This document shows, piece after piece, positions 18,845-21,906 of a DNA stretch of 64,000 bases (position 1 is the first letter of the stretch; each line of letters starts with the position of its first letter). The translations under genes and the position numbers were made by a program. Source of the stretch: a bacterium (GTDB lineage: Bacteria; Bacillota; Clostridia; Lachnospirales; Lachnospiraceae); contig CAVGHS010000001.1 of the NCBI GenBank assembly GCA_963629085.1, positions 12,222-76,221 of the forward strand, given 5' to 3'. The notes under the pieces are model-generated. The model was given only the letters and a program-made list of their open reading frames with translations. It had not been told where the DNA came from and did no database searches.

Positions 18845-18889
18845 AAAAGACACCACTTACAATGGGTATTGTAAATGGTGTCTTTTTTT
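18845..18889. terminator. Bidirectional intrinsic terminator
   Basis: AAAAGACACCA-c-TTACAAT-gggt-ATTGTAA-a-TGGTGTCTTTTTTT. Confidence 0.85.
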
Positions 18890-18926: not shown

Positions 18927-19511
18927 TTACAGTTCTGTCTCGGAAAGATGTTGTTGTAATACATTTAATTGGTTTTCTAATTGGCGATAGGCATATACAA
19001 AACTTGGGAAATATTTTTGCAGAACTAATTCCTCGATTTTCTTGTATGTGGTAGAGGAAGGCGCGATAAATCCCTGATGTTGATATAGAATGCGATTTAT
19101 ACTAACCGTTCGTATGTCATTTAGTTTTAAAATGGAATCATGGGTAATAAATGGAAAATCACAACTTTTTAATAAAAACAGATCACTGTGGGAATTAGGA
19201 AAATCATCTGGATGATAGACATCTTTGTGTTTGGATGGGTTATAGGAAAATATCGGAAGGACATATAGTAATTTTTGTTTTACACCAATCACAAGTCCCC
19301 GGTGTTCATAAGACATTTCAGGTTGAAAATTCTTCCCGAATTCAAACTGGTAAATCTCCCCTTTTTTGACTTTTCTTTGTCGATATGGTCGCTTTCGATT
19401 GTCTGCCCAGCGATAATCGGATTTAGAAAAGCGATCTAACTCATCTGTGGTATAAGTGTTGGATAGAACTGTGTCATTGGTTTTTATTTGTGCTTTCAAG
19501 TATTCTTTCAT
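18927..19511 (-). CDS. PemK/MazF-fold endoribonuclease-like toxin, 194 aa, no adjacent protein antitoxin
   Basis: KKGEIYQFEFGKN..PEMSYEHRGLVI, VLPI, LNDIRTVSINRI resemble PemK family patterns; ATG 19511 follows GGGGGGAAAG; AT-rich. Confidence 0.7.
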   Translation of the reverse strand: MKEYLKAQIKTNDTVLSNTYTTDELDRFSKSDYRWADNRKRPYRQRKVKKGEIYQFEFGKNFQPEMSYEHRGLVIGVKQKLLYVLPIFSYNPSKHKDVYHPDDFPNSHSDLFLLKSCDFPFITHDSILKLNDIRTVSINRILYQHQGFIAPSSTTYKKIEELVLQKYFPSFVYAYRQLENQLNVLQQHLSETEL

Positions 19512-19536
19512 TAACTTTCCCCCCGTGGTATGATTG

Positions 19537-19565
19537 AAAAAAGGGTACGGCGCTAACCATACCCT
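19537..19565 (-). terminator. Intrinsic terminator between the leader RNA and the toxin ORF
   Basis: 9-bp stem plus U-tract, about 25 nt before the ATG. Confidence 0.75.
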
Positions 19566-19649
19566 ACTCTGAAAATCCAGAGCGACCTCGTCGGTCAAAT
19601 GATGCTTTTATTTATGGTCTTGTCGACCAAAAACATGTAAACAAGTTGT
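19537..19649 (-). ncRNA. Putative structured leader/antitoxin RNA upstream of the PemK-like gene
   Basis: Minus-strand hairpins TGGTC-GACAA-GACCA, GACC-GACGA-GGTC, GCTCTG-GATTTT-CAGAGT, then terminator AGGGTATGG-TTAGCG-CCGTACCCT-TTTTT; G-U pairs work only on this strand. Confidence 0.6.
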
Positions 19650-19655
19650 ATTTAT

Positions 19656-19683
19656 ATTATATGTATTGATATTAAAATGTCTA
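19656..19683 (-). promoter_or_regulatory. Sigma-A promoter for the leader RNA and PemK-like gene
   Basis: TAGACA-16 bp-TATAAT on the minus strand. Confidence 0.6.
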
Positions 19684-21813: not shown

Positions 21814-21906
21814 ATAGAATATCTGGCTACCGTCGCCTCTGTAGCATCTCTTTTGACCTCGAAAGGTGTGTGGTTGCAACGTATTTTACCACCTCAGATA
21901 TCCTAT
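21814..21906 (-). ncRNA. Putative four-way-junction small RNA with kissing-loop pseudoknot (possibly skipping-rope-like)
   Basis: P1 AUAGGAUAUCUG/CAGAUAUUCUAU; P2 GUGGU/ACCAC; P3 ACCU-UUCG-AGGU; linker CAAAAGAGAU; P4 GCUAC/GUAGC; loops CGUUGC and GCGACG are complementary; own promoter and terminator. Confidence 0.75.

Follow-up and report, generated by a model that had tools for sequence, protein, structure and literature searches.

Results

Layout of the locus

The cassette lies on the minus strand of the window, by which we mean the whole 64,000-nt stretch of Lachnospiraceae DNA that was analysed. It is made up of a promoter, a short structured leader, an intrinsic terminator and an ORF whose product has a predicted MazF/PemK fold (Table 1). 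A preliminary description of this DNA had recognised the promoter, the terminator and the AT-rich character of the 194-aa ORF, and all three observations stood, the GC content of the ORF being 34.7% against 47.2% for the window. It had also compared the order of promoter, RNA, intrinsic terminator and toxin-like gene to that of type III toxin-antitoxin loci, and these elements indeed form one unit. Likewise, its statement that no space is left for a MazE/PemI gene agrees with the neighbours, a divergent GH2 gene upstream and a convergent P-type ATPase gene downstream, with a terminator between the two convergent genes. A skipping-rope RNA (Rfam, 57.1 bits, cut-off 36.7) lies elsewhere in the window, in an AT-rich patch at 21818-21902 (minus strand); the 121-aa ORF upstream of it matches no Pfam family.

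Table 1. Position of the cassette elements in the window
Feature	Position	Strand	Details
Sigma-70/SigA-type promoter, TAGACA-16-TATAAT	19656..19683	-	11/12 match; best of 11 promoter-like sites
Leader RNA, predicted, ~113 nt, terminated; candidate antitoxin	19537..19650	-	ends inferred
Repeat unit 1: U-tract, 4-bp stem GGUC/GACC, GACAA pentaloop	19616..19633	-	hairpin 19628-19616
Repeat unit 2: UUU, 4-bp stem GACC/GGUC, GACGA pentaloop	19584..19599	-	hairpin 19596-19584
Hairpin 3, variable loop	19566..19583	-	91% paired; distant members offset in the alignment here
Intrinsic terminator, between leader RNA and gene	19537..19565	-	stem 19565-19542 plus six U
Ribosome-binding-site-like G run, 6 nt 5' of ATG	19518..19524	-	sequence
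MazF/PemK-fold ORF, 194 aa	18927..19511	-	ORF, homologue alignment, structure model
Terminator hairpin, 19-bp, between MazF-fold gene and convergent P-type ATPase gene	18845..18886	-	

A longer ORF call of 223 aa, extending into the leader, was rejected in favour of the 194-aa form, as had been proposed: 18 of 20 aligned homologues begin at the same Met, and the other two are read-through calls into the leader. Relatives nevertheless reach about 223 aa, the difference being in the C-terminal coiled coil, which in the window protein is some 30 residues shorter. The start codons of 80 relatives were TTG (52), ATG (11) and GTG (5), with 12 sequences not at a start, and the ribosome-binding site of most relatives is AGGAG. 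A −10-like hexamer was found upstream of 73 of the 78 relatives with enough sequence, by a loose pattern used without a control.

The gene had been called an orphan, and the comparison of loci bears this out. No neighbouring protein family recurred beside it in more than 7 of 81 loci, once clusters falling on the leader itself had been disregarded as artefacts; both a conserved partner gene and an adjacent protein antitoxin were thus set aside. PF04014 had a single match in the host genome (90% complete), in a 189-aa frame elsewhere. The host also has a canonical MazF/EndoA gene (L515, G000:C2:47562-47885), about 67 nt after an alanine-racemase-like gene, so that no room is left between the two for the usual antitoxin gene.

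The leader RNA carries two copies of one hairpin

The 116-nt leader segment folds at −41.2 kcal/mol (z −5.18), a value matched by none of 200 shuffles. The preliminary description had seen a structured leader of about 110 nt with three hairpins and without tandem repeats. The structured leader was confirmed, but the hairpins number four, and two of them are degenerate copies of one unit, the second lying 32 nt after the first. Tandem Repeats Finder (TRF), to which such degenerate units are invisible, detected no tandem repeat in the leader. Of the 82 loci that were taken (80 from genomes and two viral), 80 could be assessed, the upstream DNA of the other two being too short; 75 carry the two-unit leader, two carry a single unit and three carry none. 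The unit in these loci is made up of a U-tract, a 4-bp stem and a pentaloop of the GACRA type. The spacing between units ranges from 29 to 34 nt and is exactly 32 nt in 49 loci.

In an alignment of 67 distinct leaders, 96.9% of the cells pair and both partners vary in 15 of 22 pairs; none of 500 shuffles reached this value and slid controls gave 32-47%, a test inflated by relatedness, as the loci were chosen by similarity to the query and kin are not independent. All four pairs of unit 1 change on both sides, with 98.9% of cells paired, unit 2 is paired in 100% of cells with two of its four pairs covarying, and the terminator is paired in 98.7% with five of eight pairs covarying. A pseudoknot was rejected, no conserved partner of at least 4 bp being present for either loop in the 67 rows (best 0.57, on a column made up mostly of gaps).

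The Rfam scan of the leader, at gathering and E-value thresholds, returned no family and only four matches far below their cut-offs. RF02913 was absent from it, and the link to the pemK RNA that had been suggested was therefore abandoned. Moreover, 14 instances of RF02913, a Bacillota intergenic motif, proved to be a different RNA, unrelated to the leader in sequence and structure, and none of the 14 has a relative of the MazF-fold protein downstream. By inspection, these instances (L089-L102) lie mostly upstream of recombinase/integrase-like or excisionase-like genes, and the family name may mislead. Two further readings were dropped by inspection: a hammerhead reading of CUGACGA, unit 2 having CCGACGA, and a boxA reading of an upstream CUUUC, a sequence that the window lacks and that seems to pair with a GAAAG further downstream.

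A MazF fold with a non-canonical active site

A search with the window protein returned 940 relatives at E <= 0.001. The protein itself does not reach the Pfam threshold for PemK_toxin (PF02452; E 0.063), but 43 of 76 family members match this model, and the PemK/MazF fold is also indicated by the ESM Atlas and by a profile search of the PDB. PADLOC gave no match and a direct PDB sequence search was uninformative. The structure model of the 194-aa protein (pLDDT 96) matched the MazF fold in Foldseek (E 2e-6, probability 1.00). In VIA the top matches were MazF/Kid proteins, from Z 15.5 (rmsd 1.9, 110 aligned) down to 12.2, followed by CptN (Z 10.4, rmsd 3.8, 118 aligned) and ToxN/AbiQ (6.6-7.0); TenpN was absent from this listing, in which MazF ranks first. 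The fold proposed earlier is thus recovered by HMM and structure searches alike, and on the model the window protein has the MazF/Kid/CcdB fold. The Pfam and NCBIfam models of ToxN, CptN and TenpN matched none of the 76 members.

In the model, N-terminal helices (2-16 and 22-39) and a basic arm (26-50, median net charge +6) precede the MazF barrel (46-173), which the shortened coiled coil follows. The protein is predicted to form a homodimer, with a score of 0.83 against 0.00 for the best control. Of 30 solved pairs, 20 came up to this mark, as did 1 of 23 single chains; as MazF dimers have already been solved, the pass may reflect likeness to them. The runs share at least 94% of contacts, with pLDDT of at least 87. 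The added helix 22-39 spans the predicted dimer, residues 25-40 touching the 60-65 loop (W35 with 62'), and W35 is present in 60 of 76 members, distant ones included.

The catalytic residues of Bacillus MazF are Arg25 and Thr48, according to the available text of PMC7354611. Neither is kept in the 76-member alignment: the Arg25 position corresponds to His70, invariant in 76/76, and the Thr48 position to Phe88, present in 62 of 71 close members, or to Ser89 next to it. This mapping comes from aligning the sequences by way of a phage EndoA-like protein rather than from coordinate superposition. With this pair replaced, RNase activity is not assured. The type III toxins likewise differ from Kid at the active site, in the part of PMC5086642 that treats it, so that the altered active site neither proves nor excludes RNase activity. 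A PEMSYEHR motif is kept in the family, and judging from the alignment the active site is a non-canonical one on a MazF fold.

Spread and decay of the cassette

The cassette is patchily distributed, being found in none of 12 genomes of the same genus and in 1 of 36 of the same family. The gene is intact in 70 of 82 loci, and the RNA is kept by 67 of the 68 intact genes with assessable upstream DNA. The single exception, L060, is also the only sequence among 71 with a P86L change. The other two leaderless genes are broken, one by H70N and a truncation and the other by loss of its N-terminus, and the leaderless copies have lost the promoter as well.

The converse situation, an RNA without its gene, is common. 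A metagenome scan for the RNA gave at least 119 matches, 73 of them distinct. Six of the matches listed are too short to be assessed. Of the other 113, 94 are followed by the gene or what is left of it, whereas no gene was detected after 19; 8 of these 19 retain gene scraps (16 were inspected). The 16-mer of unit 2 matched 15 times in 401 host-family genomes, against 2 for the control, and all 15 matches fall in full leaders, none with a tRNA within 1.5 kb. By profile, 8 of these leaders precede a gene and 7 do not (2 start remnants, 1 cut short and 4 orphans). The RNA thus frequently persists where the gene has gone, as expected if a costly toxin disappears before its antidote; a cis-acting attenuator would give the same pattern.

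The RNA is absent from all five distant relatives taken from the phylum sample (L082-L086), which indicates that it belongs to a close clade rather than to the whole family, and two phage PemK-like genes (L486 and L514), which have N-terminal extensions, are likewise without it. A search of 150 phylum genomes with the leader model gave four weak matches of 26-27 bits, and the two that were inspected were terminator-only. Together, L082-L086, L486 and L514 make up a broader group of PemK-fold proteins that stand alone and are extended at the N-terminus; in L083 a terminator-like hairpin comes at once after the promoter. Near two cassettes other elements were seen. In L078 an additional leader, with one unit and the decayed start of a gene (2696-2799), is followed by what appears on inspection to be a RelBE-like pair and then by an intact cassette, and in L079 (629-739) a drum RNA lies upstream of the cassette.

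Lone hairpins in phages

The 18-mer of unit 1 matched 52 times in IMG/VR, against 12 times for a scrambled-loop control, 11 of whose 12 matches lie in open frames of at least 100 codons. The 52 matches comprise two cassettes, seven GC-rich chance matches and 43 large AT-rich phage contigs without the gene nearby. In the latter, a stem position left free by the search pattern pairs in 43/43 copies, compared with 1/7 of the chance matches, and a terminator directly follows the hairpin in 35 of the 43. The flanks have diverged, and the 43 copies represent about a dozen lineages. Each of five phage genomes holds one hairpin (control 0). A looser viral pattern gave 111 matches, and of the 80 searched with the model only the two known cassettes scored.

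Most inspected phage copies have a phosphoesterase-like gene on one side and an HU gene on the other, and the HU of the large hairpin phages resembles yonN of SPbeta, which was the only likeness to isolate phages found by BLAST of these regions, with no host indicated. A PF02452 search found no PemK gene in 4/4 near-complete hairpin phages. Four other hairpin phages carry a PemK/MazF-like gene elsewhere, without the leader. Three SPbeta-like hairpin phages (L487-L489) possess small MazF-like genes that stand alone and have promoter-like sequences of their own, and no antitoxin was seen next to them; these genes could be the partner of the hairpin. Between the phosphoesterase-like gene and the hairpin of SPbeta-like gut phages (L434-L484), about 250 nt upstream of the latter, recurrent intergenic sequences without an Rfam match are candidates for further non-coding RNAs.

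Other copies are associated with tRNA genes. Of 45 matches to the unit-2 16-mer, 7 are located within tRNA arrays on the same strand, as against 0 of 39 controls; with duplicates collapsed the figures are 5/33 and 0/25 (p = 0.063), so that enrichment in phage tRNA arrays is suggestive only. On a 2.2-kb metagenome contig (L226), a strong promoter precedes the full two-unit RNA (75.8 bits), which has four predicted tRNAs and a phage-type HNH gene as neighbours. In another array a drum RNA lies near the hairpin (L374:1799-1910), and in L354 (1517-1590) the hairpin abuts a phage tRNA with a CUA anticodon (Pyl by ARAGORN), which may be an amber suppressor. Finally, in one phage fragment (L467) the hairpin lies 10 nt downstream of an abiF motif (44.4 bits, cut-off 37). 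No Abi_2 gene was found on this contig. The motif is near the contig end, and it was absent from nine other phage records (0/9). Within the non-coding stretch L467:1-300, the abiF motif, the hairpin, further structured sequence and a degenerate tRNA follow in a row, possibly as an array of RNA decoys.

Discussion

Relation to known toxin-antitoxin systems

The closest working model, by analogy, would be AbiF/RCd22 (two hairpins, one dimer) and not ToxIN. As presented in the available text of the preprint (bioRxiv 10.1101/2025.04.15.648962), AbiF/RCd22 of Clostridioides difficile uses a two-motif RNA with a terminator to neutralise a dimeric toxin in cis and in trans, the toxin homodimer being modelled with one RNA motif per subunit, as we propose here. 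The two systems have in common a promoter, a two-hairpin RNA (about 100-130 nt for the abiF RNA, RF03085), a terminator and a toxin gene. They differ in that AbiF is a HEPN protein, whereas the protein studied here has a MazF fold and no HEPN/Abi_2 match, and in that the abiF motifs are hairpins of 33-35 nt in the same text, against 13-nt stems with a pentaloop here; indeed, the Rfam scan found no RF03085 match in the leader.

With ToxIN/AbiQ, CptIN and TenpIN the cassette shares the operon layout, a MazF/Kid-related fold and a patchy horizontal spread, and its repeat period of about 32 nt is near the 34-36 nt given for ToxI/antiQ in the available part of PMC5086642. However, its fold is nearer to type II MazF than to CptN or ToxN (Z 15.5 against 10.4 and 6.6-7.0), a protein-protein dimer is predicted whereas the ToxIN, CptIN and TenpIN complexes have RNA-protein contacts only, and a simple hairpin stands in place of their H-type pseudoknot. 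The NCBIfam type III toxin models match 0/76 members. Set against the portion of PMC12283969 that describes these families, the cassette has the type III layout but neither the pseudoknot nor the model match of ToxIN, CptIN and TenpIN. The fold and predicted dimer are like those of type II MazEF/PemIK (B. subtilis EndoA, S. aureus MazF), which, however, have a protein antitoxin gene, where none is adjacent here; the extra N-terminal helices, the C-terminal coiled coil and the His at the Arg25 position also set our protein apart from type II MazF.

A phage-borne mimic of a type III antitoxin repeat, the pseudo-ToxI of phage TE, is described in the accessible text of PMC3475682. It is an expanded array, whereas the phage copies found here are a fixed single 18-nt unit in about a dozen lineages.

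A proposed mechanism

An RNA antitoxin had been put forward in the preliminary description, and it remains the best explanation after the repeat, covariation and linkage analyses. We propose that the short terminated RNA, with its two GACRA-loop hairpins, would bind a dimer of the MazF-fold protein, one hairpin per subunit, and keep a likely RNA-cutting toxin inactive. The basic N-terminal arm of each subunit would grip the GNRA-like pentaloop, and the terminator, together with the weak TTG start of most relatives, would keep the RNA in excess over the protein. When a phage shuts off host transcription, the RNA would be depleted and the toxin freed, leading to abortive infection, and single phage hairpins could refill the binding sites as a decoy antitoxin, like pseudo-ToxI. 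The toxin may either cut the U-tracts to give monomers of about 32 nt, as ToxN does, or bind the uncut RNA, as AbiF does; the latter is favoured because the spacing of the units is tightly held, and the conserved U-tract before each unit is a candidate cleavage site. Altogether, we consider it reasonably probable that the cassette represents a type III-like family whose toxin, a MazF dimer, is restrained by an RNA with two hairpins in the manner of AbiF/RCd22, and that phages mimic this RNA. More tentatively, and with real doubt, we suggest an independent RNA-antitoxin defence family with a dimeric MazF, a His-based active site, two boxB-like pentaloop hairpins and, in many lineages of large gut phages, a fixed 18-nt decoy; phage tRNA and other non-coding regions may then hold decoy arrays against several type III systems, as the abiF motif beside the hairpin in L467 would suggest.

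Alternative explanations

Could the leader act only on its own gene? A MazF derivative, possibly catalytically dead, might bind its own leader and set the read-through of the terminator without neutralising anything in trans. The loss of the catalytic Arg/Thr pair, the position of the hairpins directly 5' of the terminator and the basic arm with its net charge of +6 all suit such an autoregulation, and the loss of the gene before the RNA is equally expected of a cis element. Autoregulation gives no reason, however, for the spread of the cassette (0/12 and 1/36 genomes of the same genus and family) or for phages to retain lone hairpins, and it leaves the invariant His70 and the PEMSYEHR motif unexplained; we regard it as unlikely. 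Another possibility, which we hold to be quite unlikely, is that the inhibitor is fused to the toxin, the N-terminal helices being a tethered MazE-like inhibitor and the RNA a secondary modulator or sensor. The way residues 25-40 cross the predicted dimer to contact the 60-65 loop, the conservation of W35 (60/76) even in distant members, and the existence of stand-alone distant relatives that have N-terminal extensions but no RNA would fit. Yet neither the retention of the RNA by 67 of 68 intact close members nor the phage-borne hairpins would be explained, and the arm is basic whereas the inhibitory tails of MazE are acidic.

The sequence of the loop raises a different question, for GACAA is the pentaloop of P22 boxB, the target of the arginine-rich N peptide, in the available text of PMC12550061. 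A phage N-like or host factor might therefore read the hairpin, phage-driven read-through would switch the cassette on, and the phage copies would be ordinary antitermination sites, as the terminator after 35 of 43 of them and the location of others in long non-coding tRNA arrays would allow. Against this stand the single copy per phage genome (5/5), the lack of a terminator at 8 of the 43 copies and the hairpin that adjoins an abiF motif in L467; moreover, the 15/15 matches in the 401 host-family genomes are all full leaders and none is near a tRNA, which argues that the hairpin is not a general host site. Antitermination is thus very unlikely in our view. Finally, the units might act as DNA operators whose inverted arms, 5 bp apart, are bound by a dimeric repressor, each unit being a short inverted repeat 3' of the promoter and their spacing about three helical turns. 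We judge this extremely improbable: the conserved part is an asymmetric loop, and the stem sequence varies freely while pairing is maintained, with 10 G.U pairs against 2 mismatches on the transcribed strand among 142 stems, which favours RNA over a DNA operator.

Significance

The RNA antitoxin thus remains our preferred reading, and this RNA-antitoxin anti-phage system has likely not been described before: a system combining a MazF fold with two hairpins is absent from the titles and abstracts of the openly searchable literature, and the accessible portions of PMC12804078, PMC5737381 and bioRxiv 10.1101/2021.11.03.467129 contain nothing on it. If the proposal is true, it would reveal a second path by which a MazF with a protein antitoxin came under the control of an RNA antitoxin, here with a dimeric toxin and with a minimal hairpin in place of a pseudoknot. 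Mimicry of RNA antitoxins, known from one phage, would then be standing equipment of common gut phages, and their lone hairpins would lead, by association, to further RNA-antitoxin systems.
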